Shown here in pieces: positions 128 through 42,800 of a stretch of 43,058 nt of DNA (the stretch's first letter is position 1; each line of letters begins with the position of its first letter). The stretch lies in the IMG/VR virus record IMGVR_UViG_3300020138_000003, positions 1 through 43,058 of that record; one strand, 5' to 3'. The DNA comes from a virus. A program made the translations under genes and the position numbers. The notes below the pieces were generated by a model. It was not told the DNA's origin and did not search any database. It saw only the letters and a list, made by a program, of their open reading frames with translations.

Positions 128-1023
128 AGCGAAGCAACCAACGGCAAGCCGACGCTTAGGCCAGCCTGAATAATCGGAGCACTGTTGATCTGCTGTTCAG
201 CCGTAGCGTCAGGTGCCCCCAGCTTATCAAACACAGTCTGATAATCGGTGTCCTCATCGTCCGTAAGCTCTCTAATCCCTTGATCGATAGCCAAGCCAAC
301 ACCAAGGTTGGTTGCCAGCTTCGGAACAGTTGGTCCAATCAGGAACGGAGTGACAGCTTCGGCAACGGCAGGGACACCCTTGAGCTTGCCAGGCCCAGGC
401 AGAGGGATTAGGCTCCCAGCAATAGCAGCGGCGCTTTCCTCAATGTTCCGAGGATCACCGACGCCAAGGGAAGCGTTGATCTTGCGCTGACGATCTACGC
501 TGTAATTCAGTGCATCCTCAGCCCCAATATCCACACCGGGGATAAGCTCGACGCCCGACCCGACAAGGCCGTACAACGCAGGCCCGAATGTAGTCGGATC
601 AGCCGTACCGATCAACGCACCACCAGTCTGCGCCGCCATCCTTCCCGTAACATACGCAGCGGTTTTCGGATCAGTGACGTTCGTAAGGAAGTCGCGGCTG
701 TCAACCAGCGCACGCATTTCCTTCTCTTCCTTGCCCTTGGTGCTGTTGGGCCGATCGGTTAGGTACTTATCAAGCTCAGCATCGTCCAGCGTTCTTGGAT
801 CAACAGGATCGAGCGTAGCCAAAAGCTCATCTACATTCTGCAAGTCCAAAGGATCATCCGGCGTTACAACACTTGTAACACCGGACTGATCCCGCTCTAC
901 TCTGCTGCCCTTCCTGCGCCTGATCTCCAGTAGCAGGTCCAGATCATCAAGCTTCTCAAGCTCGTCATCGGGCTTATCGCCACCAAGGGACTTGTACTCA
1001 TCGATCAGGTCCTTATTCGCCAC
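1..1023 (-). CDS. 5' part (341 codons) of a wrap-around protein of about 1386 aa, a large internal-virion/ejection-type protein; continues at 42931..39794
   Basis: My translation stays open from GTG at 1023 to base 1. GGAGG sits 5 nt upstream of that GTG, which overlaps the end of ORF 1013..1864. The frame is in phase with MTKALWTATKPQ of track ORF 39794..43042. The function call rests on size and position only. Confidence 0.8.
   Translation of the reverse strand, partial: MANKDLIDEYKSLGGDKPDDELEKLDDLDLLLEIRRRKGSRVERDQSGVTSVVTPDDPLDLQNVDELLATLDPVDPRTLDDAELDKYLTDRPNSTKGKEEKEMRALVDSRDFLTNVTDPKTAAYVTGRMAAQTGGALIGTADPTTFGPALYGLVGSGVELIPGVDIGAEDALNYSVDRQRKINASLGVGDPRNIEESAAAIAGSLIPLPGPGKLKGVPAVAEAVTPFLIGPTVPKLATNLGVGLAIDQGIRELTDDEDTDYQTVFDKLGAPDATAEQQINSAPIIQAGLSVGLPLVASLPIVAPMTKALWTATKPQTPKIVEINAIDPSGPKNLASIETTA
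864..878. repeat. iterated palindrome TTACAACACTTGTAA (0 mismatches)
   Basis: Inside the giant gene, read as VTSVVT. The flanks extend the dyad (CCGG..CCGG). Confidence 0.95.
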
Positions 1024-1864
1024 CGCCGCCTCCCCGACCGGTTGTCATCGCCTTGGCTGCAAGCTGAGCAGCCTCGGCGCGGGTTTTGTCCGCACTCATC
1101 ATCGCTTGGATCAGAGCCGTCAAGCCCTGTGTAGTCGATGTATCGAACGTATTAGCCAAACCGCTCGGGCTGTATCCACTCCGACCGTCCTGACCAGCCA
1201 AACCACTGAGCATAGAAAGTTCGTTCTGCGCTCGATTGTTCCTAGCACCCTCGAACGTGGCAAAGTCTTGCATACCCTGCCGTTTCGCAGCACTGGTAAC
1301 ACCGTCAAATGCGCCTTCGCTCAGTCCTCGGAAGGCACTAGCAAAATCAGCAGCATTATTACCACCGCCAGCGCGTAGGGCCTGACGAGATACAAGTTCA
1401 CCAACACGATCTAGCCCCTGCTGTCGATCCTGCACCGCCGAACGCTGAGCATCGGCAATGAAGTCCTGCTCGCTGCGCTTCGGAGCATAGCGATAGTTGT
1501 TGAACGCCTGCTCGAAGGCATCGTTGGCCTGAATAGATCGCTGATCCTGCCGTTCAAGAGCCGCCCTGTTCCTAGGAGCATCCTCCCTAGCAGCGAGCAA
1601 CTGCTCGACTTGCTCAGCATCGAGGATCGCCTGTGACGTGGGCGTCTTCTCAGTAAACCAACCACGCACAGGATCGTACTTAGTAACGTTCCCGTACGCA
1701 TCAGTCCTCGGGGCCGTGATCAGCGACTGCTGCTGCCGAGACGAGGACAAGCTGTCCAACACGCTCGCCAACAGGATCGACTGAGGATCGACACGACCAT
1801 CCCTACCCCTTGCTAGGGTATCGGCAAAAGCCTGTTCAAGCAAGTCCTCGAAATCTACAGCCAT
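1013..1864 (-). CDS. hypothetical virion-module protein, 283 aa
   Basis: Track ORF in the late arm, tightly packed with its neighbours. No domain recognised. Confidence 0.65.
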   Translation of the reverse strand: MAVDFEDLLEQAFADTLARGRDGRVDPQSILLASVLDSLSSSRQQQSLITAPRTDAYGNVTKYDPVRGWFTEKTPTSQAILDAEQVEQLLAAREDAPRNRAALERQDQRSIQANDAFEQAFNNYRYAPKRSEQDFIADAQRSAVQDRQQGLDRVGELVSRQALRAGGGNNAADFASAFRGLSEGAFDGVTSAAKRQGMQDFATFEGARNNRAQNELSMLSGLAGQDGRSGYSPSGLANTFDTSTTQGLTALIQAMMSADKTRAEAAQLAAKAMTTGRGGGGGE

Positions 1865-2260: not shown

Positions 2261-2977
2261 TTACTTCCTTTCCTCACCGAGGACCTGCTGAAGGACCCGA
2301 TTGGAAGTCTGGTCTTTCTCAGCTTCATCATCGAATGATTTGATCCGATTGATTTCGGTGATCATCGAAGCGCGATCCATCGAGCCAGTATAGTGCCCAT
2401 CAGAAAGCATTTCGAGATAGCCACGAAGCTGGCGATCAGACATGTTTCCCAAGTCGTCCGTTACAACACTTGTAGCAGGAGCCGCCTGCTTCTGTTGCAT
2501 GACATCCCCGAGCACCTTGGCCCGGATAGCATCAGTCGATCCCGACGCGACGTTTGGGCCATTGCCAACAGGATCAGCACGTAGCGTGTCATCACGATTA
2601 TTGATGATGCTCTGCCCAGCCCTGTTCCCTCGGTGGGCGGCGTCCCAATACCCAAGCTCGTCCTCACCTTCCGCAGGCCAGTCACGAGTATCGTTAAACG
2701 GATCGCCCGGAGCCTCTTCCTGTATCTGCAAAGCCGCGGCTGCGACCATCATCATTTCACCATCCGAAGCCGGATCGAGAATGCCTGTCGCACGCTTGGC
2801 TTCTTCATAGGCAGCAGGATCAATGCGATCCATGACGTTGCCGAACCTGTTGCTCAGCGGATGCGGAAGCGCGTTGGCAACTCTGTTGGTCGACCGATTG
2901 CTGCTGATCGCACCACCGACAAGACCTGTATCGCCTCTCAGAGCAGCGAGAAGATCATCCTGAAAACCGTCAGCCAT
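2261..2977 (-). CDS. hypothetical virion-module protein, 238 aa
   Basis: Track ORF with 2-3 nt gaps to its neighbours. Confidence 0.65.
   Translation of the reverse strand: MADGFQDDLLAALRGDTGLVGGAISSNRSTNRVANALPHPLSNRFGNVMDRIDPAAYEEAKRATGILDPASDGEMMMVAAAALQIQEEAPGDPFNDTRDWPAEGEDELGYWDAAHRGNRAGQSIINNRDDTLRADPVGNGPNVASGSTDAIRAKVLGDVMQQKQAAPATSVVTDDLGNMSDRQLRGYLEMLSDGHYTGSMDRASMITEINRIKSFDDEAEKDQTSNRVLQQVLGEERK
2461..2475. repeat. iterated palindrome TTACAACACTTGTAG (1 mismatch)
   Basis: Inside 2261..2977, read as ATSVVT. Confidence 0.9.
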
Positions 2978-2980: not shown

Positions 2981-3292
2981 TTACTGCTCCACTCGATCGT
3001 AGTGCGTGCCAACAACGATCCCTGTCGGCTGCTTGTTCTTGTCAGCGAACTGCAAGGTGTTCGTAGCCACGCTGTCCTTGGCAAACGGGTTGTAAATCCG
3101 CGCATAGAACGAGGGGTTCTCGAACAAAATCTGCGCCGTGTCGTCATCGATGATGAATACGTTTTCATGCTCATCGATCACAGCAATTCGATGTCCCTCA
3201 TCGTTACAAAAGTTGTAATCGACCTCAATCGAAGTCTCGACATCGTCATCGACCCCAGGACCGACTTCCTTAACCACAGGCTTCCTAGCCAT
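2981..3292 (-). CDS. hypothetical protein, 103 aa
   Basis: Track ORF in operon context. Confidence 0.6.
   Translation of the reverse strand: MARKPVVKEVGPGVDDDVETSIEVDYNFCNDEGHRIAVIDEHENVFIIDDDTAQILFENPSFYARIYNPFAKDSVATNTLQFADKNKQPTGIVVGTHYDRVEQ
3204..3218. repeat. iterated palindrome TTACAAAAGTTGTAA (0 mismatches)
   Basis: Inside 2981..3292, read as YNFCN. This is the only Y-N-x-C-N frame case. Confidence 0.95.
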
Positions 3293-4213: not shown

Positions 4214-4668
4214 TGCTCGATCTCCATGCAGAAATTGGTTCCGATCTGTGTAAAGCCAAAGCGTTTGGCGAGCATGGCAAACTTCTCAACCTTGTAACCG
4301 CTCGACTGTGACCATCGGATTTCTCTTACACACCGTTCCTTGGCCCATTTCACATAAGCCGTTACAAGTGTTGTAATCGCCTTTAGGCTCCGATGCTGCG
4401 GGATGACATAGGTCACCCGGTCGATAGCATAAGCCTCGTAACTGAATGGGAACGACAACGCCTCCGCTGCCATTCCTCCAATGATCTGCCCATGATCTGT
4501 GATCACGTTGCAGAAAAAGTCCTCGTTGTTGATATTGCCCTTGAGCATTCCGATAACCTTCTCAGGAGCATAGCTGATCTTACCGTAATGTGTTTCGGCA
4601 AGACCAGCCTTGAGAAGCTCAACGATCATTGGAATTTCGTACGGGCTGTAACGCCTTGTCTCGATCAT
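4210..4668 (-). CDS. GNAT-like N-acetyltransferase (tentative), 152 aa
   Basis: The ATG at 4668 overlaps the upstream TGA (ATGA). The beta-alpha pattern and the segment VIPQHRSLKAITTLVTAYVKWAKE resemble GNAT motif A. No search was run. Confidence 0.45.
   Translation of the reverse strand: MIETRRYSPYEIPMIVELLKAGLAETHYGKISYAPEKVIGMLKGNINNEDFFCNVITDHGQIIGGMAAEALSFPFSYEAYAIDRVTYVIPQHRSLKAITTLVTAYVKWAKERCVREIRWSQSSGYKVEKFAMLAKRFGFTQIGTNFCMEIEQ
4362..4376. repeat. iterated palindrome TTACAAGTGTTGTAA (0 mismatches)
   Basis: Inside the GNAT-like gene, read as ITTLVT. Confidence 0.95.
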
Positions 4669-5050: not shown

Positions 5051-5065
5051 TTACAACTCTTGTAA
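5051..5065. repeat. iterated palindrome TTACAACTCTTGTAA (0 mismatches)
   Basis: Fills 15 of the 20 nt between the stop at 5069 and the start at 5048. Confidence 0.95.
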
Positions 5066-5614: not shown

Positions 5615-6152
5615 CGATCAAGCGCCCCTGCTTCGCCCAATCACGCCAAGGGTGAAGCTCGAAGTGGCCCCAATCGAGAAAACTCTCATCAGAGGTTTTA
5701 TCGTTCATGTTCCAATCAGCACCCCAACGAATAGGGATTTTGCGCGCTTTGGCAATGGTAAGAAACACCTGCGCAATGGCTTTGAACTTATCCACGTTGT
5801 CGAAATCAATGGGATAGGGGACGATGTCCATGGCAACGGCAGGGATATAGTTATGTGCCGACTGACCAAAGTGTGCCTTAGTGTTACCGAGCTTGAATGC
5901 CTGCTCTTGCTCGGCCCTACCACGTTGTGCATCAAGGATCACGAAGTCGATCTGTTTGATCGCCTCATCAACGATCAATTGCAGGTTCGGATGTAGTTCC
6001 TTTCGTGCATCCAAGCTGCGTTTGGAGAACTTGAACCCCGTTACAACAGTTGTAGTTAGTCCAAGATCAAGCTCAGGCTCGGTTTCCTCAACCACTTCTT
6101 GTCTCCGTTTGTAGAAAATCCAGCCGAACAAGTTACATCCACGGTTCACCAC
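5607..6152 (-). CDS. M15-family zinc peptidase (endolysin candidate), 181 aa
   Basis: The pattern SAHNYIPAVAMDIVP ... DWGHFEL fits the H-x6-D ... H metal ligands of VanY/M15 peptidases. Confidence 0.75.
   Translation of the reverse strand: MVNRGCNLFGWIFYKRRQEVVEETEPELDLGLTTTVVTGFKFSKRSLDARKELHPNLQLIVDEAIKQIDFVILDAQRGRAEQEQAFKLGNTKAHFGQSAHNYIPAVAMDIVPYPIDFDNVDKFKAIAQVFLTIAKARKIPIRWGADWNMNDKTSDESFLDWGHFELHPWRDWAKQGRLIDE
6041..6055. repeat. iterated palindrome TTACAACAGTTGTAG (1 mismatch)
   Basis: Inside the M15 peptidase gene, read as TTTVVT. Confidence 0.9.
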
Positions 6153-6595
6153 GTCAGCCCCTCACCGATGCGCCAAGCACTATCGAGTTGTTGTTCAGTC
6201 AAACCGGCAGCCCCAGCTAGTGCGGCGAGTAAGGCGTTGTCCCGAGCAAACGTCTGCTGTTCGTCAAATACAATGCGGGCGAGGACTTTCTCATCCCCAT
6301 CAGGCATTGCATCAATTAGATCATAAACAGCCTGTTTGGTAATTCCCAATTTCTGCATCATGAACAGAAAAGCAGGACGAGATAATGGCTCAAACGGTTT
6401 CGGGGGCTCTTCCATTTCGATCGGAATTAATGCGAAGCCGCCATAATTCTCATTCGTCACAGCGCCACAAACCACATCACCGTTCGGCAGGTGGATCGGG
6501 TTCGGGATCGCAGGGCACTGACCCCATGTACCTCCCCACACCTGAATTTCCGTGCCCTCACCATCGACCAGTTTGTATCCAACGATCTCGCTCAT
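6146..6595 (-). CDS. hypothetical protein, 149 aa (downstream of the fibre genes)
   Basis: Track ORF that overlaps the next gene by 7 nt. Confidence 0.6.
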   Translation of the reverse strand: MSEIVGYKLVDGEGTEIQVWGGTWGQCPAIPNPIHLPNGDVVCGAVTNENYGGFALIPIEMEEPPKPFEPLSRPAFLFMMQKLGITKQAVYDLIDAMPDGDEKVLARIVFDEQQTFARDNALLAALAGAAGLTEQQLDSAWRIGEGLTW

Positions 6596-6597
6596 AC

Positions 6598-7788
6598 CTA
6601 TAATCCCATGTTGGGCATATTGAAGCCGCCACTTGTTTTTGGTCTATAGTCGAGGACGATCAGTGAACCACCGCCGTTCCCGGACTTTGTAGCTCTGCCA
6701 GACCCGTTTCGAGTAACGCCACCGCCGCCTCCCCCGTACTTTCCTCCAGAGTTACCAGCAGCGGGAGACGACTGCGTATCTGTAAACTGAAAACCACCGC
6801 CACCGCCGCCTGTTCCATGTGCTGGATCGAACTCGGAGCCATCACCACCATCAGCTTCTGCTCCACCAGCACTCCCGGTTCCTCCGTTGCCGCCATTACC
6901 ATCACCCCCCTTTGAAGCTCCGGTACCGCTCTGATTGGTTCCGTTCCCACCATTGGCATCTGGCCCAGCTGCTCCGCCTCCACCAGTTGCACGCCGATCA
7001 TCCGCTACGGCGCCGTTGCCGCCTCTACCACCAGCCCGTTTGAGCGCCCCAACGCTTGCAGCAGTCGTACCACCAGCCCCCCCTACGGCACTCGTAGCAC
7101 GCCCTTCTGCCTTACCACCAGCCCCAGGGCCTGCACAAACTATGTAATCAGTAGGGAACACCACTCCAGTGTTCTTTGTGCTTAGGGCAGACGCACTCCC
7201 TGTCTCTCCATCAATTGCACTATTTGTTCCTGAGGGTGCCGTTGGTGTTACCACTGAGCTTTCGGTAAATACATAGAGCCTCGTAGGGAACGTGAAATTG
7301 GCAGTTTGGGCGAAAGCCCCGCCACCACCACCACCAACATTGCTATGACTTGCAACCGTGCGAATGCCTCCACCACCGCCCGGTCCTACGGCCCTTGCTG
7401 TGTTAAAGGTATCGTCCCAATCATTTGGGCGGTTTACTTGGGTATAGTTGTTATTGCCTGAATAGAACACCTGTGTAGCAAGTTCAAAGCTCAGGTGAGG
7501 TAACAGTTCTGGGTCTCCCCATACATCATTGAAATGATGAAGGTTTGGAGCATTACCACCACAACCAATATGCTGAGCCAGGTCCCAATAAAATGCGTCA
7601 AGCTCATCACGATCATCAAACCACCCAGCCCATGCGATATGCCCATCGTGCAAACGTGCACGAACACGGAACCTCGTCTGGTTCTGGTTCCCAAGAGCGT
7701 CCCTTGGCTGTGACAATGATGGCTCTCGCCATTGTAGGTGAGGTACTGGCACCAATATGCGGTTCTCATATGGTTGAAGAATGATCAT
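6598..7788 (-). CDS. glycine-rich tail-fibre-like protein, 396 aa
   Basis: Long GGxGG/GNGG tracts in the C-terminal two thirds. ATGA overlap with the upstream fibre gene. Confidence 0.5.
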   Translation of the reverse strand: MIILQPYENRILVPVPHLQWREPSLSQPRDALGNQNQTRFRVRARLHDGHIAWAGWFDDRDELDAFYWDLAQHIGCGGNAPNLHHFNDVWGDPELLPHLSFELATQVFYSGNNNYTQVNRPNDWDDTFNTARAVGPGGGGGIRTVASHSNVGGGGGGAFAQTANFTFPTRLYVFTESSVVTPTAPSGTNSAIDGETGSASALSTKNTGVVFPTDYIVCAGPGAGGKAEGRATSAVGGAGGTTAASVGALKRAGGRGGNGAVADDRRATGGGGAAGPDANGGNGTNQSGTGASKGGDGNGGNGGTGSAGGAEADGGDGSEFDPAHGTGGGGGGFQFTDTQSSPAAGNSGGKYGGGGGGVTRNGSGRATKSGNGGGSLIVLDYRPKTSGGFNMPNMGL

Positions 7789-9260
7789 TGCAGCGCCTTA
7801 AAGACATAGGTTGAAACGCCATTAATCCTTCTGATCGACATAATGAATTTGTGCCCATTCGTCGTTGTAAGTTCATCGCCAGTGTTCGTACCGACAGTAA
7901 ATCCGGACAACGTCAACGCTCCGGCAGAAGCGCCATTCGTCATAAGCAAATCGATGGCACAGTCTTGTGTCGGAGCAGTAATCGTGAGCGCGCTGTTTCT
8001 TGTGCCGTATTGATACGACGACTTTGTATGATCAAGGGTAAAACTCGTCATAGTTCCAAGCGAAGCAGTAACAATGGCAGAACCCCCGCTCCGTGCAACT
8101 GCCGCTGTTTGCGTCGCCGTCAAATTTTGTGGTGCCCCTGTTCCTGCTCCCACCGCGCGGCCTTTGATCTGCGCCTGCGCCATGTCAGCAAGTTTAGCAT
8201 TGCCGACGTAACCATCAGGGACTGTTCCAAAGCGTGCATCATCACCAGCAGCAACTGTCCCTTCCGTTGTGCCCACATTTAGTGTAGCAGCACCACCGAG
8301 GTCCTCAGGTTGCACTGCGGTGCTTGCCAGTACCCCCTCCGCAGCAGTAGCAAAGTCACTTACTTTCTTTCCACTGTCCTTGATGATCTTACCAGTCGTA
8401 CCTGAGAACAGCACAATCCTATCATTGACCGAAGTGATCGGGCCTTGGACATCACCAACGCCCTCAGCTGGAACGCCAGGCAATCCACTGATGCTGATGT
8501 ACCAATTCGAGATCGTGCCTGTGCCCTTGATCGCAGCGACGTCAATGGTAAGCTCACCAGTCGCAGGATCATAGGCCGTGATCGGACCATAAAGCTGGTT
8601 ATCGGTAGGATTGGCAGCATCCCTCGCCACCACCCAATCTCCGGGACGCCACGACTTGCCGATCTCGGTTTGGAAATTCAGGACTGCTTGTTCAATATCG
8701 TGCTCTGTCGTGCTCGTCCCAGAGTACGTAGCGGCAAGCATGGCCAATTCAGCACGATCAGCATCTGCATCGACCTGTGCTACAACACTTGTAATGTCGA
8801 AGATCGGGAACCAGAACCCTTGGCTCAGATCAGCCAACAAATCATCGCTGGACTGGTGCGGAACAAGACAACCAAGGATTAGTGCCCCACCCATTGCATA
8901 GACGAGGTCGTTAGTGAAATATGCAGTCTGTGGCAGCCAAAAACCGCGAGGCAGCAATCCCTGTGACACTACGCGCCAACGCTCAGGGTGAGCAGCAATC
9001 TCTTCTGAGAATGTGCCAGTGCTTGGGCTCGTGTGCTCAATCAGGCAGCGCCACAAGCTGCCCGTCGCTGTATTGACGACACGATCCTCAACCCTATACA
9101 ACGTGTTGTGTGCCCAGATGCCTCTGATGTTCGAAAACACACCAAGCGACCGCAATGTTGCATCAATGATGGTCATATTGTCGTTAACATCATCGTGCCA
9201 TGTCGCGGCATTAAAGTTCGGACGAGACAAACGCAGGGTCGGTGTTGGATTTGTGGTCAT
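7785..9260 (-). CDS. tail fibre/tailspike candidate, 491 aa
   Basis: Called from size, position after the tail-tube-like genes, and Gly/Thr/Ala-rich repetitive segments. Confidence 0.45.
   Translation of the reverse strand: MTTNPTPTLRLSRPNFNAATWHDDVNDNMTIIDATLRSLGVFSNIRGIWAHNTLYRVEDRVVNTATGSLWRCLIEHTSPSTGTFSEEIAAHPERWRVVSQGLLPRGFWLPQTAYFTNDLVYAMGGALILGCLVPHQSSDDLLADLSQGFWFPIFDITSVVAQVDADADRAELAMLAATYSGTSTTEHDIEQAVLNFQTEIGKSWRPGDWVVARDAANPTDNQLYGPITAYDPATGELTIDVAAIKGTGTISNWYISISGLPGVPAEGVGDVQGPITSVNDRIVLFSGTTGKIIKDSGKKVSDFATAAEGVLASTAVQPEDLGGAATLNVGTTEGTVAAGDDARFGTVPDGYVGNAKLADMAQAQIKGRAVGAGTGAPQNLTATQTAAVARSGGSAIVTASLGTMTSFTLDHTKSSYQYGTRNSALTITAPTQDCAIDLLMTNGASAGALTLSGFTVGTNTGDELTTTNGHKFIMSIRRINGVSTYVFKALQ
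8780..8794. repeat. iterated palindrome CTACAACACTTGTAA (1 mismatch)
   Basis: Inside the fibre gene, read as ITSVVA. Confidence 0.9.
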
Positions 9261-11725: not shown

Positions 11726-11740
11726 TTACAACTCTTGTAA
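11726..11740. repeat. iterated palindrome TTACAACTCTTGTAA (0 mismatches)
   Basis: Intergenic, 2 nt upstream of the start at 11723. Confidence 0.95.
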
Positions 11741-12936: not shown

Positions 12937-12951
12937 TTACAACCCTTGTAA
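12937..12951. repeat. iterated palindrome TTACAACCCTTGTAA (0 mismatches)
   Basis: Intergenic, 2 nt upstream of the start at 12934. The spacer reads GGG on the coding strand. Confidence 0.95.
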
Positions 12952-33064: not shown

Positions 33065-33621
33065 TGCCAACCAAATCTAAAGTTGCTGGGCCGGCTAAGC
33101 CTAAGTCGGCCAGTAAGGGTAAAGGGACTGCGCCCAAAGACAGCCCCGCTACAACTGTTGTAACCAAACCAACCAAAGGTAACGCTACCATGTCTGACCA
33201 GGTCACGATCATCGATCTCGATATGAACCTCGAAGATTTCGAGGATTATGAGATTTTGCCCGATGGTCCTCTCCCCGGTGAATGCACCATTGCCGAGGTC
33301 CGCACTTCGGACAATGGCAACCAGTATTTCTACACCATGTGGCGGATCGATCCTTCCGATTATCCGCTCGACTACGATCGGGAGAACGCCCCGAACGGAA
33401 CCATCATGAACTATTCGCGTGTTCAGGTTCCGACCCCCGGCGATCGTCGCTCGATCACTTCGGTCAAGAAGTTCATGGCTGCGATGGGCCTGAGCCTCAA
33501 GACCAACTCGATCGATTGCTCGCAGTGGGTTGGCAAGCGCGCCATGCTCAACATTGGGCATCAGGTCTACAACGGTGAGAACCGGAACCAGATCGTGTCG
33601 GTTGAGAACGAGGACGCCTAA
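33064..33621 (+). CDS. DUF669-like putative ssDNA-binding protein (tentative), 185 aa
   Basis: Lies next to the AAA_24 ATPase. Basic low-complexity N-terminus followed by a globular domain. Confidence 0.4.
   Translation: MPTKSKVAGPAKPKSASKGKGTAPKDSPATTVVTKPTKGNATMSDQVTIIDLDMNLEDFEDYEILPDGPLPGECTIAEVRTSDNGNQYFYTMWRIDPSDYPLDYDRENAPNGTIMNYSRVQVPTPGDRRSITSVKKFMAAMGLSLKTNSIDCSQWVGKRAMLNIGHQVYNGENRNQIVSVENEDA
33149..33163. repeat. iterated palindrome CTACAACTGTTGTAA (1 mismatch)
   Basis: Inside 33064..33621, read as ATTVVT. Confidence 0.9.
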
Positions 33622-33740: not shown

Positions 33741-33770
33741 GAGGGGGAGATTAATTTCTCCCCCTCTTAT
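33741..33770 (+). terminator. intrinsic terminator GAGGGGGAGA-ttaatt-TCTCCCCCTC-TTATT
   Basis: 10-bp GC-rich stem, confirmed against the ORF-track frame. Confidence 0.65.
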
Positions 33771-33784
33771 TACAACTCTTATAA
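33770..33784. repeat. iterated palindrome TTACAACTCTTATAA (1 mismatch)
   Basis: Intergenic, directly after the terminator 33741..33770 and upstream of the helicase. Confidence 0.9.
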
Positions 33785-33803: not shown

Positions 33804-35027
33804 ATGTCGTTCTCCAACGCTACCCAAGATCAACAGCTAGCAATCGATCTAAGCCTCGACACGGCTAATCGACTTGTTGGCATCACTGGGGCAGCAGGCA
33901 CAGGCAAAACCACCGTTCTCGGTGAAGCAATATCCGAAGCCAAAGATGCTGGATACTCAGTCGCAGTCGCTGCCCCGACTGGCCGTGCCGCCGCTCGGAT
34001 CAAAGAAAAGTCTGGGCATTATGCTCAGACAGTCCATCGCTTGCTTGGCTATGGTGCCCCTGATCCCAATGACCCCAATGATATGCCCATCCCTAAGCGT
34101 GGGCGTAGTAATCCTATCCCTGCCGACTTCATCTTCATTGATGAAGCCTCGATGCTTAGTGATGAACTGCACCGCAATCTTGTTCAAGCTGTTCGCCCCG
34201 GTGCCGTCCTGCGCTACTTCGGGGACATGAACCAACTCCCGCCTGTCGAAGGAACCAGCAAGTTCCAGATGGTGCTCGACAAGTTCCCGTCAGTTACACT
34301 ACAGCACAACTTTCGTTCAGGCGACGGGATCATTCAGGCCAGCCAATCCATACTCAAGGGCCTGCTTCCCGTCACCAACGATCAGGTTTCGATCCTCAAC
34401 ATTGGTTCGCGCCTTGGGCTCACCACGCTCAGCGAGTTCATTGATGAAGAGTTTCTTACTGACCAAGCGCAGATCATCTTGCCCACGCGCGTCGGTCAGC
34501 TTGGTACAAATCTTGTAAACAGGTACATCCAACAGAAGCTCAACACCAATCCTCGGCATCTTGATCTGGTCTATGAAGCCAAAGGTCAGGACCCTGAGCA
34601 GAAGTTGCGCCTACGTCCCGGCGACAAGATCATCTGGACCAAGAACGATTACAATCTCAACCTGTTCAATGGCATGATCGGTCGCGTCGTCAACTTCGAT
34701 GAGTTCGAGGGCTCGATTGTGCTTGAGTTCTATGGGCAGGACAAGGTTATTCCTACAGTCCTCGAACGCTACGATGCACAGAACGATAGGAAAATCTTCC
34801 GGTATGATCCGCGGCGCTACATCGATCTGGCCTACGCAATCACGACGCACAAGTCTCAGGGCTCAGAGTTCCAGCGCGTATTAATGCTGCTCTATCGCAC
34901 TCGTGTCGCATCGCGCCAGAACTTCTATACAGCAATCACTCGTGCTCGTAAGCACGTTACCGTCATCGCTGGCCCCGGTGGCCTTCGATCAGCCATGCAA
35001 CTTCAACGTCAGTCACAGGAGGAATAG
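33804..35027 (+). CDS. SF1 DNA helicase, RecD/Dda-like, 407 aa
   Basis: Motifs ITGAAGTGKTT, FIDEASML, GDMNQLPPV, AITTHKSQGSEF and YTAITRARKHV. Confidence 0.9.
   Translation: MSFSNATQDQQLAIDLSLDTANRLVGITGAAGTGKTTVLGEAISEAKDAGYSVAVAAPTGRAAARIKEKSGHYAQTVHRLLGYGAPDPNDPNDMPIPKRGRSNPIPADFIFIDEASMLSDELHRNLVQAVRPGAVLRYFGDMNQLPPVEGTSKFQMVLDKFPSVTLQHNFRSGDGIIQASQSILKGLLPVTNDQVSILNIGSRLGLTTLSEFIDEEFLTDQAQIILPTRVGQLGTNLVNRYIQQKLNTNPRHLDLVYEAKGQDPEQKLRLRPGDKIIWTKNDYNLNLFNGMIGRVVNFDEFEGSIVLEFYGQDKVIPTVLERYDAQNDRKIFRYDPRRYIDLAYAITTHKSQGSEFQRVLMLLYRTRVASRQNFYTAITRARKHVTVIAGPGGLRSAMQLQRQSQEE
34504..34518. repeat. iterated palindrome GTACAAATCTTGTAA (1 mismatch)
   Basis: Inside the helicase gene, read as GTNLVN. 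Confidence 0.9.
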
Positions 35028-35367: not shown

Positions 35368-35789
35368 TCTACCGCAAATCCAACCATCGGTTTCCAAAGA
35401 AGGCCCCACTTGCCAAGCGTATCTTTGTCTATGGCTCGTCCCTTACTGGTTCGGTCAAGACAGGCTTGGCACACGATGCCTACATGCACCACGGCGCAAC
35501 TGCCGGACATAAGGCCGGTATCAGTGGACAGGCATATGCCATCCCTGTCCGTGACCATAACGATAAGCTCTTGACCTTGATACAGATTGATCTTTGGGTC
35601 AGTCGGTTCTTGGTCTTTGCAGCTGAACATCGAGAGCTACAGTTCGATGTCACGGCTGTCGGTTGCGCCCCCAACGAGTACACGGCACAGCAGATTGCAC
35701 CGTTCTTCCAAGTCCGAACCACCAACATCAGGCTACCGAAATCATTCATCAACGTCCTGATCAACCCAACCCCATTACAAGAGTTGTAA
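35364..35789 (+). CDS. conserved-looking hypothetical protein, 141 aa
   Basis: ATGA overlap upstream. The motif FVYGSSLTG...GISGQAYAIPV is reminiscent of Rossmann/SLOG-like phage proteins, which is very tentative. The stop codon is supplied by a palindrome copy. Confidence 0.55.
   Translation: MIYRKSNHRFPKKAPLAKRIFVYGSSLTGSVKTGLAHDAYMHHGATAGHKAGISGQAYAIPVRDHNDKLLTLIQIDLWVSRFLVFAAEHRELQFDVTAVGCAPNEYTAQQIAPFFQVRTTNIRLPKSFINVLINPTPLQEL
35775..35789. repeat. iterated palindrome TTACAAGAGTTGTAA (0 mismatches)
   Basis: Read as L-Q-E-L-stop. Its TAA is the stop of 35364..35789, and the next ATG follows 1 nt later. Confidence 0.95.
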
Positions 35790-35991: not shown

Positions 35992-38488
35992 TCTAAAGCT
36001 CCACAAGAAGGAAATGCTCAATCGTTGTATTGAGCTTGATCTTGAACCACAGGTTCTGTGCGATGGCAGGCTCGACGCTGAGCTTGTCATCGTTGCCGAA
36101 GCTCCCGGTGGAACAGAAGTTGCACAGAAGCTCCCACTCGTTGGGAGTTCTGGTGCATTGATCTGGAACATCCTACGCCAGAACAACATCCTCCGTCCGA
36201 ACTTCTACATCACCAATGTCTGTAAGCGACAGATCAGCCTCAGCAGTGAGAAGCGTGCTGCTGTCCCTGCTGATGAATGGACACGGTGGCGCACGCTGTT
36301 TGATTGGGAAATGCGGCAGCTTACGGGTCCCAAGGTAATCCTTGCTATGGGCAACGTGGCTATCGAAGCTCTGCTCGGTGTCACTGGCATCAACAAGTTC
36401 CGTGGCTCAGTCTATGATCTGAACCTCAACGGACATGATGTTAAAGTCATGTGTACCTACAATGCTGCGGCAGTTCTTCGGCAGCCCAAGGATGAAATCA
36501 TTCTGCATTTTGACATCCGGCGGTTTGCTCAGCTTGCTCAGGGCGATTGGAAAGAGTGGCCAGTCACCACGCGCTACGATCTCAGCTTCGATGAAACCCT
36601 TGCCGAGATCGCACGGTTCAAAGCCGAGAACAAAGACACAGCCGTTGACATCGAGTGGACCTCGGGGCGCTTGGCCTGTGTCGGCTTGGCCAACGATGTT
36701 CATCATGCTGTTTGTATCAATTTCCGTGACAGGCTTTCCAATCGCTTTACGACCGAGCAGGAAATCCAAATCATGTTCGCGTTACAAGACTTGTATCAAA
36801 GTCTCGCAGCATCAGGCCACATGATCGGACAGAACAGTTCGTTCGATAGTCATGCTTCTGGCATCTTCGATCACATTGATATGCCGATGAACTATGACAC
36901 GTTGCTTGCTCACCATACACTCTATCCAACCCTACCGCACAACCTCGGTTTCCTCACCAGCATGTACACGACCATGCCGTACTACAAGGACGAGGGCTCC
37001 GAGTGGAAGGAAGATGGTGATGTCACTACGCTCTGGGAGTATAACGGTAAGGACGCCTGCGCAACCCTAGCCGCTAAGATCGGCACTGAGCAAGAGCTAA
37101 AACAGCAAGGGCTCTATGACTTCTTCATCAACCATGTCATGCACTTGCAGCCGCACCTAATCCAATCGACCATTCATGGGATCAGAGTTGATCAGGCTAT
37201 CAAGCGCAAGATCGCAACCGAACTCTCAACCGAAGTCGAGGAAAAGAAGCTCAAGTTCCAGCACTGCGCAAGGATTGCTACTGGCTTACCTGACACATAC
37301 AAGCCCAACCCTGACAGCCCAGCCCAAGTCAAAGACCTGCTCTATACTCGCCTCGGCCTACGGCATCGATCCAATTCCACCGACGCCAATGCTCGGGAAG
37401 ATATGCTCGCCGATCCTCGAACGTCGGCTGCTGCCAAGGAAGTTCTCGTCTCGCTCACCAACTACAAAGCCGATGCGAAGTTCCTGTCAACCTATGCCGA
37501 AAGCCGTGTCGATCCTGACGGCAGGTTCCGCTGCGACTGGAAACAGTACGGCGTTCAGTCAGCACCGGGGCGACTATCTTCATCCAAGACCCTTTGGGGC
37601 ACAGGGATGAACATGCAGAACCAGCCATATCGTGCTCGGCAGTTCTATATTGCTGACGACGATTGTGTGCTGATCTACTTCGACCTTGCGCAGGCTGAGG
37701 CGCGTGTTGTTGGCTACGTCGCCGACATCGACAAGTGGAAGGAAGATTTTGAACGTGCTCGTGTGTCTGGGGATTTCGACTGCCATCGATCCCTTGCCGC
37801 TGACATGTTCAAGATGCCTTACGACGACGTTCCCAAAGACGACCTTGATGAGGATGGCGAGCATACCATCCGTTACATCGCCAAGCGTTGTCGCCACGGC
37901 TTGAACTATCGAATGCAGATTGATCGACTTGCCGAAACAACAGGCTTGTCTTTCTCTCGCGCTGCTCAAGCCTATCATGCCTATCACCGCTTGACCCCAG
38001 AGCTTCAACTCTGGTGGAAGGAGATTGAACACATAGCCAAGCGTGATCGAGAACTGTTCAACGCCTTTGGTCGCAGGATGAAAATCTTGCAGCGCATTGA
38101 CGATGATGCTCTCAAGTCAATCGTTGCGTTCTATCCTCAGTCTACCATTGGGGACAAGGTCTGTGAAGTCTGGTACTCGGCACATGAAGATGATCGATGG
38201 GATAGCCACAAGGCGCGTATTCAGCTTAATGTGCATGATGCTCTCATCGGCATCGCGCACAAGGACTATGCCAAGACTGCTCTGTCGATCATGAAAGCCT
38301 ACGCAGAGAAACCGATCCTGATCGAGAACGTTTACAAGACCAAGCGTGAGCAGCTTATCATTCCTGCTGACTGCGCGATCTCTGCGCTTGAGTTCAAGGA
38401 CAAGAAAGGAAACATCGTCAAGGATACTGTCCATCGCTGGTCGAACTTGCAGAAGCTCAAGCTCGATGCAGCAAGTCTGCCGATCTGA
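35981..38488 (+). CDS. family A DNA polymerase with an N-terminal family-4 UDG-like domain and a 3'-5' exonuclease
   Basis: UDG-like segment VIVAEAPGGTEVAQKLPLVGSSGALIW. Exonuclease motifs VDIEW, QNSSFDS and YNGKD. Polymerase motifs FDLAQAEARV, RYIAKRCRHGLNY and NVHDA. The start is uncertain: GTG at 35981 overlapping the upstream stop, or ATG at 36014. Confidence 0.9.
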   Translation: MQTDLKLHKKEMLNRCIELDLEPQVLCDGRLDAELVIVAEAPGGTEVAQKLPLVGSSGALIWNILRQNNILRPNFYITNVCKRQISLSSEKRAAVPADEWTRWRTLFDWEMRQLTGPKVILAMGNVAIEALLGVTGINKFRGSVYDLNLNGHDVKVMCTYNAAAVLRQPKDEIILHFDIRRFAQLAQGDWKEWPVTTRYDLSFDETLAEIARFKAENKDTAVDIEWTSGRLACVGLANDVHHAVCINFRDRLSNRFTTEQEIQIMFALQDLYQSLAASGHMIGQNSSFDSHASGIFDHIDMPMNYDTLLAHHTLYPTLPHNLGFLTSMYTTMPYYKDEGSEWKEDGDVTTLWEYNGKDACATLAAKIGTEQELKQQGLYDFFINHVMHLQPHLIQSTIHGIRVDQAIKRKIATELSTEVEEKKLKFQHCARIATGLPDTYKPNPDSPAQVKDLLYTRLGLRHRSNSTDANAREDMLADPRTSAAAKEVLVSLTNYKADAKFLSTYAESRVDPDGRFRCDWKQYGVQSAPGRLSSSKTLWGTGMNMQNQPYRARQFYIADDDCVLIYFDLAQAEARVVGYVADIDKWKEDFERARVSGDFDCHRSLAADMFKMPYDDVPKDDLDEDGEHTIRYIAKRCRHGLNYRMQIDRLAETTGLSFSRAAQAYHAYHRLTPELQLWWKEIEHIAKRDRELFNAFGRRMKILQRIDDDALKSIVAFYPQSTIGDKVCEVWYSAHEDDRWDSHKARIQLNVHDALIGIAHKDYAKTALSIMKAYAEKPILIENVYKTKREQLIIPADCAISALEFKDKKGNIVKDTVHRWSNLQKLKLDAASLPI
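36782..36796. repeat. iterated palindrome TTACAAGACTTGTAT (1 mismatch)
   Basis: Inside the polymerase gene in the stop-containing frame, read as LQDLY. TAA is changed to TAT. Confidence 0.9.
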
Positions 38489-38503
38489 TTACAACACTTG
38501 TAA
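38489..38503. repeat. iterated palindrome TTACAACACTTGTAA (0 mismatches)
   Basis: Starts right after the polymerase stop. Its 3' end overlaps the AAAGGAA RBS of the mazG-like gene. Confidence 0.95.
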
Positions 38504-39517: not shown

Positions 39518-39534
39518 AATGCTTGGAGACACCA

Positions 39535-39861
39535 ATGGCCTTCTCTCTGCGCTACGCTGAACTTGTTCGTAGGCTTCTGCTTGCTGCTGGTACCAACGGC
39601 ATCGGTCAGCGTGATCTACACCAGCGTTCTCGTACTCCAAAGTACAACATCGATGACCTGCTCATGTTGCTTCATGCTTGGCAACGCCGCAATTGGGTCG
39701 ATCATTACAAGATTGGAGCTAAGCATTACTGGCGCGCGACACAGCTTTTGCATGACCAGTGGTTCATCGTTACAAGTGTTGTATCAGACGTGCTCACTGC
39801 GGACCTCCCGCCATCGGCGCTAAGTCCTTCGCAAAATCAAACCGACGACCCGGAGGCATGA
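39535..39861 (+). CDS. winged-helix-like DNA-binding protein candidate, 108 aa
   Basis: GGAGA lies 5 nt upstream of the ATG at 39535. HTH-plus-wing pattern GIGQRDLHQRSRT ... VDHYKIGAKHYWRAT. The 3' end overlaps the convergent giant gene by 68 nt. Confidence 0.45.
   Translation: MAFSLRYAELVRRLLLAAGTNGIGQRDLHQRSRTPKYNIDDLLMLLHAWQRRNWVDHYKIGAKHYWRATQLLHDQWFIVTSVVSDVLTADLPPSALSPSQNQTDDPEA
39770..39784. repeat. iterated palindrome TTACAAGTGTTGTAT (1 mismatch)
   Basis: Inside the winged-helix candidate gene, read as VTSVVS. Confidence 0.9.
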
Positions 39862-42800
39862 CCCCGGCCGCAACAAGTTGATCAGTCACGTCATCTTCGA
39901 TCTGCCTGATCTGTGCAAGCTGTTGTTCCATTGTCGCATGGCGCTCAGTTTCGAGCAAGTTGATCAGACGCTCGACATCGAACCTGTCAGTCAGGTCAAT
40001 GTCGTTGTCTTTCAACAACTGTCTTGTCTTAATCATTTGCTCGTATTGCCACTCAGTAGCTTTCGCGCTCTCAAGAGCACTTTTCGCTGCCAGCCCGGCC
40101 TCCGTCTGTGTTTTTTCTCCACGCGGAATAGCGTCATACGCTTCTTGGGCAACAGCTGTCTCCCCCTTAGCCTGTTCGTAATCGTCCACAGCACTGTCCA
40201 GTTTCTGCTCGAACTCTATATAATCCCTCTTGCGTCCAGCGTTATATCCCTTGAGCAGGTTGATTTGTTCAGTCAGCGTACCCTGCCGCGCACGGATGTT
40301 CCCCATACCATACGCGCTGTTGCTCTCCATCGAGTTCCAGATATATTCGCCCATCGCCGCATATACTGGATTGGTCGGCCTCGGGGTAGTTGGGGGCGCG
40401 ACATAGCCAATCGGCGCATCCATTGTCACACCAGCCGGACCAGCAGGGAAGTCTTGCGTTGACCGCACTACTCCGCCCCGACGATAGTGCAGGTCGTACT
40501 CATCCTTGAACTTATAATAGGCATCAAGCTTCATCCGCTGCTCTTGAGCAATCGGTGTAAAGTACGTAGCCTTACGCTTTAGCCCAGCAACGCCCTTGAG
40601 TACCGGAACCCTGGCCAGCACGTCCTCGCTAAATTCCTCAGCCGCCGCACCCGGTCCCCCCTCGCCAAAGGCATAGGCGGCATCGAGGGCATAAGCACTC
40701 GCAGCACCGAACAGTTCACGGATCGTCATTTCGACGTTCTGCGGCAGATAACCAACGTTATCCTCGGTGATGTTGTAGGCATTCCCACCGATCTCAGGCG
40801 GATTAATACCAAGCATAGCAAGCCCAGCATTGGCCAGTGGAGGCATACTGATTGGGCTCATGTTCTGCAACAAGGTCATACCGAACTGGTCAGCAGCAGC
40901 TTTCGTATGCTCGTCGCTCGATGACAAGTGTTGTAACATCTGCTGATATGGTGCAGCAAACAGCACCTGCTCATGTGCAATCGGAATGCTGATCCCCTGC
41001 TCGGGAGGCAGCCCAGGAATACCGATGTAAATCGGCTCCATGATCTGATCACGCATCGAACGCTGCTCGAACTGGTACTTGTTGTAATCATGCCCATCGG
41101 GGTTCTGCTCGCTTAGCATATTATTCCATGCCATTGATACAACACTTGGCAAGCCGACCGTCATCCATGACCGAAGCGCGAACCGTACCGGATCATCCGC
41201 AGCCGCACCAAATGCTCTGCGCACGCCCTGTATCGATGGGTTAAAATACGGCACAGAAAGCCGAACAGCCTCAGACGCACCACCGATTATTGCATCTAGT
41301 GGCACGAACGTGGGGTTCGCAGCATCTGCGGTGATCAAACGCCCTCGACTATCAAAGGCTCGGCCAGACCTGTTCGTATCACCAGTAATCCTTCGAGCAC
41401 TACCCGCAGCTTTGGCGGGATCGATCCCCGCCTTGACTGAACGCTTGAATGCCGAGTATCTCGGAGCTTCCTGCAAGCTATCGAACAGCGCACCGAAGCC
41501 CTTGATAGCTGCCCCAGCACTCACGCCCCACGATCTGCCAAGCCAAGGGTAACGCTCATTCAACTCTCGACCGATCTCATGGAACGCACCAGTCGCAACC
41601 TCCATTCGAGTACGCATGATCGAGGCGTCGTAACCACCCTGCTCTTTGGCCATCGTGTAGATCGTATTCTGCAACGAATTGGCAGCACGCTGCACGAATT
41701 GCTGAGCCGCCCCCTGTTCCATGAACGGGATCATCTGCTTCCCAGCCAGTAACCTTGCCTCAGCCGCACGAACGAAAGCCTCGGTAGCCTTAGCACTGAG
41801 GATTTCAGCCGGTGCGGTAAGCACACCAAGAATGCTGGGGCCTTTCTCACCCTTGCCGACGTTCGCAGCGCCTGCGAGTGTATCGCGGATCATTGTTGTC
41901 GGAGCAAACGTGATCGAAGCAACACCAGTCGTACCCTTTTCGAACCACCTACGGGCCGTGACGATGCTACTCCCAAGTACGCCGCGAACAGCGTAGGGAT
42001 CAAACTGTGCAATCTGCGCCTGCAACTGGCCTGTGATGTAATTCGTGGTCTTGCCCTGCCTTACAACACTTATAATGCGCGTCGGATACTTCCGAACTTC
42101 ATCCGCCGTAGCCTTCCTGATCAATGGTGATTTCTTGCCCTTGATCCTCGCAGCCTGAACATCAGATGAGAGCAAGCTATCAACGTAGTTCGCCCTCGTA
42201 TTGTTCTGCAACTGCTGATTGAGCACGCCGCGCGTATACTCGATCATCGTCTCCATCGAGTGCCGACGATCGTTGACTGCCTTGTTCCCAAGATAGTCTT
42301 TGCGCCCGAACCAAGCCTGCTCATCAACTGGGGCACGATTGTTCCTTGCAGCCTGATTGATCCTAGTCAGCAGCGGGTCGCCGGGATTGATACTCGTCGG
42401 GCTGCTCGGGACAAAGTGCTTTCTGCTCATCGCAAGGCTTTGTCCCTGATTACGCCCAATCAGTGCATTCGGCCCCTGCTGCAAGAAGTCCCTGCTTGCA
42501 TCCATCACACCCTGATAAGCTTTGCTGAACTCGGCAAGCTGCGGGTACTTGGCACGCAAGTCAGCGCGTTGTTTCTGAACAGTGCTGAGCTTTCGTTTGG
42601 CCCCCTTTGGTCCCTTCGGATTGTTTGCTTGCAATCTTAGGTCGTCGGCAAAGTCACCGAGCTTGAGATACAGATCGTATTCGCGCTGAACTTCGGGCGG
42701 AAGCTGATAGAAGCTATCATACAGCACTCGCGGAGCGACAGGCGCGTTGAAGTCTCCGAACTGCCCACGAAGCTTGCCGGAGTTCAGAGCTTCGTTGGTT

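Follow-up and report, generated by a model that had tools for sequence, protein, structure and literature searches.

The window analyzed here, positions 1 to 43,058 of IMG/VR virus record IMGVR_UViG_3300020138_000003 (43,058 nucleotides, nt), contains a complete phage genome of 42,931 bp that carries 45 copies of the palindrome TTACAA-N3-TTGTAA, spaced far more evenly than random placement would give. The copies behave as sites for a protein dimer, they are under selection at the DNA level, and comparable arrays with changing sequences are conserved across the phage family. We propose that the palindromes are double-stranded DNA sites for a symmetric dimer of a phage protein, that they are kept evenly along the genome, that a 112-amino-acid (aa) winged-helix protein would be the binder, and that the array would have a role in replication or genome maintenance. 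The probability we attach to this reading as a whole is about 0.4.

Copy number and spacing of the palindrome

Copies were scored by the number of mismatches across the 12 specified bases of the palindrome. The genome holds 20, 25, 1, 10, and 76 sites with zero, one, two, three, and four mismatches, respectively, and the uniform expectations are 0.003, 0.09, 1.5, 15, and 103. Because sites with two or three mismatches occur at or below chance, the family consists of the 45 copies with at most one mismatch (approximately 0.1 expected), with a sharp cut-off at that point (Table 1). An initial annotation, made from the sequence alone, had listed the same 45 positions and 45 intervals, all of which were reproduced exactly on the 42,931-bp circle. 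It had also taken a site at 7133 for a decayed copy. This site has three mismatches, and since three-mismatch sites are no more common in the genome than expected, it was rejected as not distinguishable from chance.

In the comparison with a random null that the initial annotation had suggested, the intervals between copies have a coefficient of variation (CV) of 0.478, whereas uniform placement gives 0.967 ± 0.135 and did not match the observed evenness in any of 5000 simulations. The shortest gap outside 19.8-20.8 kb is 435 nt, in agreement with the earlier statement that no interval outside the control region falls below 430 nt. The largest gap is 2739 nt (P = 0.03). This gap probably represents recently acquired DNA that has yet to gain a site, because its genes (6146-6595 and 6598-7788) have no homologue in the relatives.

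Arrays in relatives

The contigs of five relatives were found through homologues of the portal protein and of the family A DNA polymerase (PolA), and their motifs were obtained by an unbiased scan for gapped palindromes. The closest relative (59% portal identity) carries TTACAA-N3-TTGTAA, and the four others (down to 37% portal identity) carry CTACAG-N3-CTGTAG; the core TACA-N5-TGTA is the same in both types. All motif-bearing loci of the relatives are evenly spaced (CV 0.55-0.65, P < 0.005). Loss of spacing in relatives had been named as an outcome that would speak against a periodic array, and the relatives turn out to be evenly spaced even where the motif sequence differs. Mean spacing is approximately 955, 800, and 550 nt in three near-complete relatives and, by type, approximately 950 nt for TTACAA and 550-800 nt for CTACAG. 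Two relatives at approximately 30% identity are without either motif. One of these has another palindrome, ACACGTGT; in the more distant relative L005 (116-9197), which lacks the TACA-type motif, it occurs in 12 copies, mostly in the control and early region. Repeated AGGAACTTCC words were seen in another locus (L006).

A scan of IMG/VR with the single portal protein gave no match, and retrieval required a PolA alignment, which retrieved 80 IMG/VR loci. At least 600 PolA homologues were found. When 82 loci were clustered by PolA, approximately 56 grouped together, each with a high-copy palindrome. The types found include CTACAG-N3-CTGTAG, TTACAG-N3-CTGTAA (one short locus), TTACAT-N3-ATGTAA, GTGTGA-N-TCACAC, GTTTGA-N-TCAAAC, GTATGA-N-TCATAC, GTTGTG-N3-CACAAC, TGTGTG-N3-CACACA, and CTTTAA-N-TTAAAG. 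Among 32 further loci with at least 10 sites, representing nine other palindromes, the median CV is 0.53, the spacing is significantly even in 24 (P < 0.05), and the means range from 0.6 to 1.7 kb. The array is thus a family trait of a large clade of uncultured phages, with changing specificity (at least nine types). The "ruler" of about 1 kb originally described holds as even spacing but not as a fixed length, because mean spacing differs between lineages (0.5 to 1.7 kb, with a CV of approximately 0.5).

Outside the array clade, two loci (L070, L073), which keep or may keep a full helicase, have TAACACGTGTTA five to six times at rather even distances of approximately 2.5-4.5 kb (CV 0.27-0.28). 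Low-density arrays may predate the dense ones.

Spacing is not explained by gene layout

In the window, approximately 19 copies have their center 9-35 nt upstream of a start codon, 4 are in the control region, 5 are in other noncoding DNA or at the ends of genes, and 17 are intragenic. The initial description of the copies as spaced regardless of gene boundaries was overstated, as approximately 28 of the 45 are noncoding or no more than about 45 nt upstream of a start codon. By the relatives' own gene calls, 152 of 235 sites are intragenic (65%), 70 fall in noncoding DNA, which makes up 7% of the total (an approximately fourfold enrichment), and 13 are immediately upstream of the next start.

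With such enrichment, and with gene starts that are themselves nonrandom (CV 0.83), the array could be seen as a by-product of gene layout or chance, i.e., a gene-start signal made regular by gene sizes. Three gene-aware nulls were simulated. The CV was 0.92 when boundary copies were fixed and the 17 internal copies were re-placed randomly in coding DNA, 0.75 when boundary copies were redrawn from the 58 gene starts, and 0.97 when both were randomized; under each null, none of 20,000 simulations reached 0.478 (P < 5×10−5). Thus, internal copies lie where boundary copies leave holes, and the gene starts that carry a boundary copy form a subset without crowding. For eight loci of the five relatives, internal sites were re-placed only at frame-1 positions (defined below) of called genes, and this null was also rejected (CV 0.42-0.65, with P from <0.0002 to 0.02). 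One relative locus (L004) has a CV of 0.58 despite 25 of its 29 sites being in genes. These results refute an origin in gene layout or chance in the window and in the relatives alike, so that it can be dismissed, and they bear out the earlier claim that spacing follows DNA length rather than gene count.

The palindrome behaves as a dimer site on double-stranded DNA

If the palindrome acted as a hairpin, then its two arms would be expected to change together. Summed over six genomes, Watson-Crick agreement between positions 1 and 15 was found in 106 copies (106.4 expected) and between positions 6 and 10 in 141 (145 expected); the arms within a copy therefore vary independently. When 275 sites were oriented by transcription, no information content was found past two flanking positions, which are themselves symmetric (CR...YG). 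Flank asymmetry by absolute strand is essentially absent, apart from a slight enrichment of C at position 7, in the spacer. Scanning the control region gave one promoter-like and no terminator-like match (shuffle means 3.2 and 2.2), and nothing informative in the way of sigma-70 promoters or intrinsic terminators was seen outside the motif. Independent half-sites without flanking signal suggest a dimer site on double-stranded DNA, and the palindrome behaves as such, unlike a hairpin, a two-element promoter, or an intrinsic terminator. The earlier argument against a purely gene-expression signal stands: half-sites are independent, conservation does not extend beyond two nucleotides on either side, and, as described below, encoded peptides follow the motif.

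A hairpin in RNA or single-stranded DNA, which would signal processing, stability, or translation, serve as an N4-type hairpin promoter, or act in priming, is very unlikely. Perfect copies are able to fold into a stem of 7 bp closed by a loop of 3 nt (−3.3 to −5.2 kcal/mol), and many copies adjoin start codons. However, arm pairs do not covary within copies in any of the six genomes, all 25 imperfect window copies have one uncompensated change each and then fold no better than shuffles (approximately −1 kcal/mol), compensated double variants are absent from the window, and there is no Rfam match. The hairpin is largely refuted, since its stem is not maintained by compensatory changes.

Programmed nick sites as in T5-like phages, a candidate of the initial annotation, are likewise very unlikely. 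Specific dispersed sites in a lytic phage would suit such a role, but a symmetric, apparently dimer-bound site would be cut on both strands, and no HNH or GIY-YIG nickase was recognized in the scanned window proteins. Known nick consensus sequences are asymmetric and strand-specific.

Sites are written into coding sequence

The DNA-level signal overrides protein sequence. In the relatives, 137 of 152 intragenic sites (90%) are in one reading frame, frame 1, in which the CTACAG type reads xCT ACA GNN NCT GTA Gxx and encodes peptides such as ATGAV and PTGPV; the equivalent in the window is xTT ACA ANN NTT GTA Axx. In frame 0 the copy would contain a stop codon, so that this frame is used only where a mismatch removes the stop (17472, 36782, 40922), or where the TAA is the real stop of the gene (35775). 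At a homologous column of a scaffold-like protein, genomes of the TTACAA type encode VTSVV or TTTVV, and those of the CTACAG type encode PTGPV or ATAPV.

The same is observed in PolA, where nearly all genomes of the array clade have a site in their own motif at alignment columns 320-329. The peptides encoded there are LQDLY (TTACAAGACTTGTAT), LQLLY, LCDSH (GTGTGACTCACAC), LFDSH, and CCETQ. The position of the site is kept, and both DNA and protein sequence are rewritten in each lineage. This column could be the ancestral site of the system, and possibly an origin. It lies at 36782-36796 in the window and at approximately 10770-10840 in seven other loci (L022, L025, L027, L028, L035, L043, L079).

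A second accommodation is seen at late genes whose ATG is pressed against a copy. These have no separate Shine-Dalgarno sequence, and in four of five the spacer is GAG or GGG, which creates AAGAG or AAGGG at ribosome-binding distance; genes without an adjacent copy have GGAG or AGGA. Since the spacer sometimes doubles as a weak ribosome-binding sequence, arms and spacer form two overlapping codes.

A candidate binder with helicase ancestry

The 112-aa protein is encoded by the last plus-strand gene, which is conserved in the window and in the three near-complete relatives, and has 33 representative homologues among 1.8 billion proteins. Its AlphaFold2 model is a winged helix (predicted local distance difference test score, pLDDT, 86.5), and the best Foldseek matches are the dimeric DNA binders ArsR, MarR, PadR, and AspA. 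Sequence searches of the PDB with this protein and with a 333-aa early protein gave nothing useful. The gene converges with that of the 1082-aa late protein, with a 68-nt overlap (39794-39861).

A profile of the protein matched 48 of the 91 sequences searched. In the array clade the winged helix has its own, free open reading frame (ORF) of 72-139 codons, which follows closely downstream of PolA. The other PolA clades have it as the C-terminal domain of a DUF3987 protein of 412-501 aa, whose gene occupies the same syntenic place, after PolA and MazG and facing the giant late gene. A profile of the helicase part found 16 non-array loci and no match in the window or in any array genome searched. 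Genomes that encode the fused protein either lack an array or carry just 1-9 palindromes, which are often clustered. In the literature, DUF3987 proteins are assigned to the replicative helicases of superfamily 6 and described as having a winged helix at the C terminus (PMC4889955), and helicase activity has been demonstrated for one of them (PMC11724360). Judged from sequence and synteny, the 112-aa protein is a remnant of the C-terminal DNA-binding domain of such a helicase. It is homologous to the origin-binding winged-helix domains of replicative helicases (DUF3987 superfamily 6, MCM-like; PMC4889955), but here the domain is free-standing, the ATPase is gone, and its presumed sites are evenly dispersed rather than clustered, as iterons are, at one origin.

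Relation to known dispersed repeats

A literature search for evenly spaced phage palindromes returned only the repeats of Cluster O mycobacteriophages and of related actinophages. Cluster O phages such as Corndog have a 17-bp repeat, TGTTCGG-N3-CCGAACA, in 34 exact copies, about one third of them intragenic, for which the authors predicted a dimeric binder; they judged the repeat not to be tied to promoters and left its function unexplained (PMC4351075). Both systems have inverted arms, a variable 3-bp spacer, and more than 30 dispersed copies, some of them intragenic (here a 6+3+6 structure with 45 copies, approximately 17 intragenic), in a phage without obvious signs of a temperate lifestyle. 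A helicase of the DUF3987 type is encoded by Corndog as well. The sequence TGTTCGG-N3-CCGAACA is not that of the present array, however, the phages are unrelated (the portal has no match in 50,697 phage records), and the arms are invariant in Corndog. Our rescan of Corndog found 37 sites with a genome-wide CV of 0.93, which is like random, and a weak even trend in the right arm (CV 0.67, P = 0.04). In Corndog (L091 and L092) the repeats are approximately 3.5 kb apart in the left arm and 0.9 kb in the right, and each arm is more even than the whole. The array is of the same kind as the Cluster O repeats, in an unrelated phage family, and Cluster O is the closest described case. The present case adds even spacing and a candidate binder, together with an embedding in one reading frame and a specificity that co-evolves, neither of which is mentioned in the passages used from the Cluster O report.

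Cluster A phages have tens of genome-wide stoperators for L5 gp71-type proteins in addition to operators at the early promoter (PMC9283540). Tens of dispersed sites for one protein (here the candidate binder) would be common to both. Stoperators, however, are asymmetric 13-bp sites, oriented with transcription and bound by the monomeric immunity repressor of temperate phages. The sites here are palindromes with symmetric flanks, often intragenic, and no integrase, repressor, or ParAB was found in the scanned proteins. Stoperators are mostly intergenic. Nor do the copies correspond to Cluster K start-associated sequences, as only approximately 19 of 45 are near starts and the relatives' sites are mostly intragenic.

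The KorB OB sites of RK2 and the dispersed centromere sites of N15 are palindromes of 13-16 bp, dispersed across a replicon, at which a single dimeric protein binds. These systems have approximately 4-12 sites and ParB-family proteins, and neither even spacing nor in-frame embedding is reported for them. No ParB-family domain was found among the scanned proteins, unlike ParB/parS or KorB/OB arrays. The array is therefore not a stoperator, start-associated-sequence, or parS/ParB system.

Possible function of the array

In the proposed mechanism, a dimer of a phage-encoded protein, for which the 112-aa protein is the candidate, would bind the palindromes on double-stranded DNA. Selection keeps their density even, such that no stretch longer than approximately 1.5-2 kb is without a site, and sites near an existing site are not maintained. 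Available noncoding DNA hosts sites, pressed against start codons, with the spacer sometimes serving as a weak ribosome-binding site; elsewhere, sites enter genes in the one tolerant reading frame at the cost of amino acid changes. The array could then offer the replication proteins places for docking or initiation along the genome, in a clade that has lost its hexameric helicase and has no recognizable primase.

Evenness of this kind is best understood as the outcome of selection for coverage in which every site has a cost: sites gather in cheap noncoding DNA, intragenic sites are added only where the gap would otherwise be long, the more easily encoded CTACAG type is denser, and newly acquired genes are without sites. 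A DNA-level function that needs periodic sites, as the initial annotation suggested, is supported by the spacing nulls and by the DNA-level signal, though short of proof. On our reading, the array would serve in replication or in maintaining the genome. This is favored by the ancestry and location of the candidate binder, by a clade in which no hexameric helicase or primase was found, and by the independence of the array from the direction of transcription. Lagging-strand or other replication initiation, among the candidates originally listed, receives indirect support from the helicase-derived candidate and from primase and hexameric helicase not being found.

Several points weigh against a replication or maintenance role with the 112-aa protein as binder. 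Known primases read 3-nt single-stranded sites, and the known origin-binding domains act at clusters of sites rather than at 45 dispersed ones. The extra copies in the control region and those beside start codons would also fit a transcription factor. The association of the free domain with the array is a single split in the PolA tree, so that it counts as one evolutionary event and is suggestive rather than statistical proof; moreover, non-array relatives carry a few dispersed palindromes, which makes the difference one of degree. The link between protein and motif is circumstantial. Within sub-clades, winged-helix residues are not cleanly sorted by motif type. The H2-H3 loop differs between the TACA-type and GTGTGA-type groups, and one Q-to-E change accompanies GTGTGA to GTATGA, both confounded with phylogeny. 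Since many proteins of this phage have no recognizable fold, another phage protein or a host protein may be the binder.

A more specific version, in which the DNA-binding tail of the lost helicase became free and its sites spread into an array at the scale of Okazaki fragments that would program replication or re-priming starts throughout the genome in place of a primase-helicase, is doubtful.

Alternatively, the array may serve to coat, compact, or protect the genome. A dimer at each site would nucleate short-range spreading or bridging, and sites every 0.5-1.5 kb would cover or loop the chromosome, which could shield it against host nucleases or translocating restriction or CRISPR enzymes, or could organize packaging. 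Taken alone such a coat is unlikely, and it is nearly as plausible as the replication role. The spacing is exactly that of selection for coverage, density tracks ease of encoding (see the spacings of the TTACAA and CTACAG types above) as a cost and benefit per site would predict, and the structural matches include AspA, by its entry title a centromere-binding protein. AspA spreads along DNA from its palindromic site. On the other hand, spreading or bridging would have to be assumed, proteins of the ArsR/MarR type typically act at discrete operators, the scanned proteins include no recognized ParB, KorB, or histone-like protein, and a coat would leave the helicase-domain ancestry of the candidate unexplained.

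Stoperator-like control, with a global repressor or roadblock acting on operators at divergent promoters and along both operons, is less plausible than the replication and coat readings and, in our view, improbable. Four to eight close-set copies lie in the control regions of the window and relatives, the copies just upstream of start codons would suit it, the candidate has a transcription-regulator fold, and Cluster A stoperators offer a precedent. However, the sites are symmetric and equal in early and late operons, so that binding could not separate the two, and the predominantly intragenic sites of the relatives (65%) are unrelated to gene ends. Promoter or terminator signals are absent beside the sites, both in the control-region scan and in the flanks of the 275 sites, and no integrase, repressor, or partition gene was found among the scanned proteins. 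By the gene-aware nulls, what is kept is spacing and not gene starts.

Genome organization

The ends of the window (1-127 and 42932-43058) are identical over 127 nt, with the start of the 1082-aa gene (43042) inside, which probably reflects the overlap of a circular assembly rather than a true terminal repeat. The genome has a G+C content of 52.7%. The minus strand carries the late module, which runs from 39794 across the junction to approximately 19834 and includes the large terminase (17022-18503), a P22-like portal (15028-17040), tail genes, and the 1082-aa protein. Early and replication genes form a module on the plus strand (approximately 21436 to 39861) that encodes a PD-(D/E)XK exonuclease, an AAA_24 ATPase, a RecD/Dda-like helicase, and PolA, which has a UDG-like domain at its N terminus.

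The lineage is uncultured. Neither a nucleotide search with 6 kb of the window nor tblastn with the portal protein gave a match in 50,697 phage records, and the best match of PolA among them has 26% identity. When approximately 40 proteins were compared with Pfam and PHROGs, with some small late proteins outside the scan, no helix-turn-helix, integrase, primase, ParB, or methyltransferase was found, and no repressor, ParAB or other partition protein, KorB, histone-like protein, or HNH or GIY-YIG nickase was recognized. No primase domain was found in the relatives' gene tables either. Scans for tRNAs and Rfam families were empty. GC skew is negative along the whole genome, with no switch that would mark an origin.

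In the control region, a tandem AATCTT run and a 26-nt inverted repeat (19898-19923 and 19930-19955) lie within 19880-19960, and an AT-only block built from TATAGTA-like words occupies 20305-20350; these are possible promoter, UP-element, or origin features. A second family of repeated words, not related to the palindrome, is formed by many scattered copies of CTAGAAC, TCTAGT, and CTCTAG at 20600-20850 and 21030-21360. A stretch of 900 nt (112-1012), flanked by the tail-gene block on one side and by the start of the 1082-aa gene on the other, has no ORF above 60 codons on the coding strand, a single palindrome copy (864), no tRNA, and no Rfam family; this stretch could be noncoding DNA, a packaging or terminus region, or a disrupted gene. 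The 396-aa gene within 6146-7788 contains short direct repeats, among them a 25-nt family at 6884-7037, and the 18-nt word CGCCACCGCCGCCTCCCC at 6717-6734 exactly matches 1018-1035 in gene 1013-1864.

Across relatives, the length of the giant late protein ranges from 1082 to 1482 aa, with no more than 30-40% identity (window 39794-43042; L008 13322-17770; L009 13712-17317; L010 11460-15692), and the giant late gene of relA holds the largest site-free gap, 3414 nt.

Table 1. Palindrome copies and other features of the window. Mismatches are counted against TTACAA-N3-TTGTAA; L numbers denote loci of relatives.
Feature	Position	Strand	Context
Palindrome copy, exact	864..878	.	in ORF-poor stretch 112-1012
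Palindrome copy, 1 mismatch	2461..2475	.	inside ORF 2261-2977(-), frame 1
Palindrome copy, exact	3204..3218	.	end 1 nt upstream of minus-strand ATG 3202 (TTGTAAcGATG)
Palindrome copy, exact	4362..4376	.	inside ORF 4210-4725(-), frame 1
Palindrome copy, exact	5051..5065	.	occupies 20-nt intergenic gap, 2 nt upstream of ATG 5048; spacer GAG gives AAGAG at Shine-Dalgarno distance
Palindrome copy, 1 mismatch	6041..6055	.	ORF 5607-6152(-), 97 nt in, frame 1
Palindrome copy, 1 mismatch	8780..8794	.	inside 491-aa gene, frame 1
Palindrome copy, exact	10003..10017	.	inside 608-aa gene, frame 1; alignment column shared with L001
Palindrome copy, exact	10840..10854	.	inside 608-aa gene, frame 1
Palindrome copy, exact	11726..11740	.	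2 nt upstream of ATG 11723
Palindrome copy, exact	12937..12951	.	2 nt upstream of ATG 12934; spacer GGG gives AAGGG
Palindrome copy, exact	14046..14060	.	inside 365-aa gene, frame 1; column shared with L001, L002, L007, peptide differing according to motif type
Palindrome copy, 1 mismatch	14754..14768	.	inside 365-aa gene, frame 1
Palindrome copy, 1 mismatch	15765..15779	.	inside portal gene, frame 1
Palindrome copy, 1 mismatch	16755..16769	.	inside portal gene, frame 1
Palindrome copy, 1 mismatch	17472..17486	.	inside large terminase gene, frame 0; mismatch (TAC) abolishes in-frame TAA
Palindrome copy, 1 mismatch	18519..18533	.	final codons of 72-aa gene; 15 nt upstream of terminase ATG 18503
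Palindrome copy, exact	19380..19394	.	2 nt upstream of ATG 19377
Palindrome copy, exact	19815..19829	.	closely upstream of first late gene, control-region edge
Palindrome copy, 1 mismatch	20180..20194	.	control region
Palindrome copy, exact	20224..20238	.	control region
Palindrome copy, 1 mismatch	20372..20386	.	control region; closely downstream of AT-rich block 20305-20350
Palindrome copy, 1 mismatch	20791..20805	.	control region
Palindrome copy, exact	21686..21700	.	intergenic; upstream of gene 21717-22217
Palindrome copy, exact	23032..23046	.	20 nt into longest ORF 23012-23611; probably upstream of true start
Palindrome copy, 1 mismatch	23612..23626	.	intergenic; AGGAAAGGA between copy and ATG 23644
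Palindrome copy, exact	24757..24771	.	5' part of longest ORF 24665-25219, frame 2; probably upstream of true start
Palindrome copy, exact	25238..25252	.	intergenic; upstream of ATG 25273
Palindrome copy, exact	26282..26296	.	intergenic; past stop at 26274
Palindrome copy, 1 mismatch	26825..26839	.	intergenic; upstream of ATG 26867
Palindrome copy, 1 mismatch	27374..27388	.	upstream of ATG 27402
Palindrome copy, 1 mismatch	28010..28024	.	3' end of gene 27565-28050; upstream of ATG 28043
Palindrome copy, 1 mismatch	29048..29062	.	uncertain gene model
Palindrome copy, exact	29979..29993	.	inside ORF 29753-30076, frame 1
Palindrome copy, 1 mismatch	31097..31111	.	inside PD-(D/E)XK exonuclease gene, frame 1; column shared with L008
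Palindrome copy, 1 mismatch	31777..31791	.	uncertain gene model; upstream of ATG 31868
Palindrome copy, 1 mismatch	33149..33163	.	upstream of probable start of 185-aa gene
Palindrome copy, 1 mismatch	33770..33784	.	intergenic; upstream of helicase ATG 33804
Palindrome copy, 1 mismatch	34504..34518	.	inside RecD/Dda-like helicase gene, frame 1; column shared with L008
Palindrome copy, exact	35775..35789	.	TAA of copy is stop codon of gene 35364-35789
Palindrome copy, 1 mismatch	36782..36796	.	PolA, frame 0, encodes L-Q-D-L-Y; clade-wide conserved PolA position
Palindrome copy, exact	38489..38503	.	begins right after PolA stop codon
Palindrome copy, 1 mismatch	39770..39784	.	inside candidate binder gene 39523-39861(+), frame 1; just past stop of giant gene
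Palindrome copy, 1 mismatch	40922..40936	.	inside 1082-aa gene, frame 0; mismatch (TCA) abolishes TAA
Palindrome copy, 1 mismatch	42061..42075	.	inside 1082-aa gene, frame 1
Candidate binder, 112-aa winged-helix protein	39523..39861	+	orphan homologue of DUF3987 helicase C-terminal domain
Noncoding divergent control region, 1.6 kb	19835..21435	.	four close-set palindrome copies within
Two lineage-specific genes	6146..7788	-	cover the sole interval above 1.8 kb; no homologue in any relative; 6598-7788 has low codon score

Implications

Dispersed palindromes have been described, without explanation, in a few phages, Cluster O mycobacteriophages above all. Here, the even density of the sites provides quantitative proof of DNA-level selection that overrides protein sequence, as illustrated by the PolA position that is rewritten in each lineage, and the case supplies a concrete candidate binder with replication ancestry. 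If the replication reading is true, the array would represent a new means by which a virus organizes DNA synthesis without the help of a primase-helicase, whereas a true coat reading would make it sequence-programmed protective chromatin. Under either, the many pairs of motif and protein in this family would form a natural series for studying how a specificity co-evolves with hundreds of target sites.

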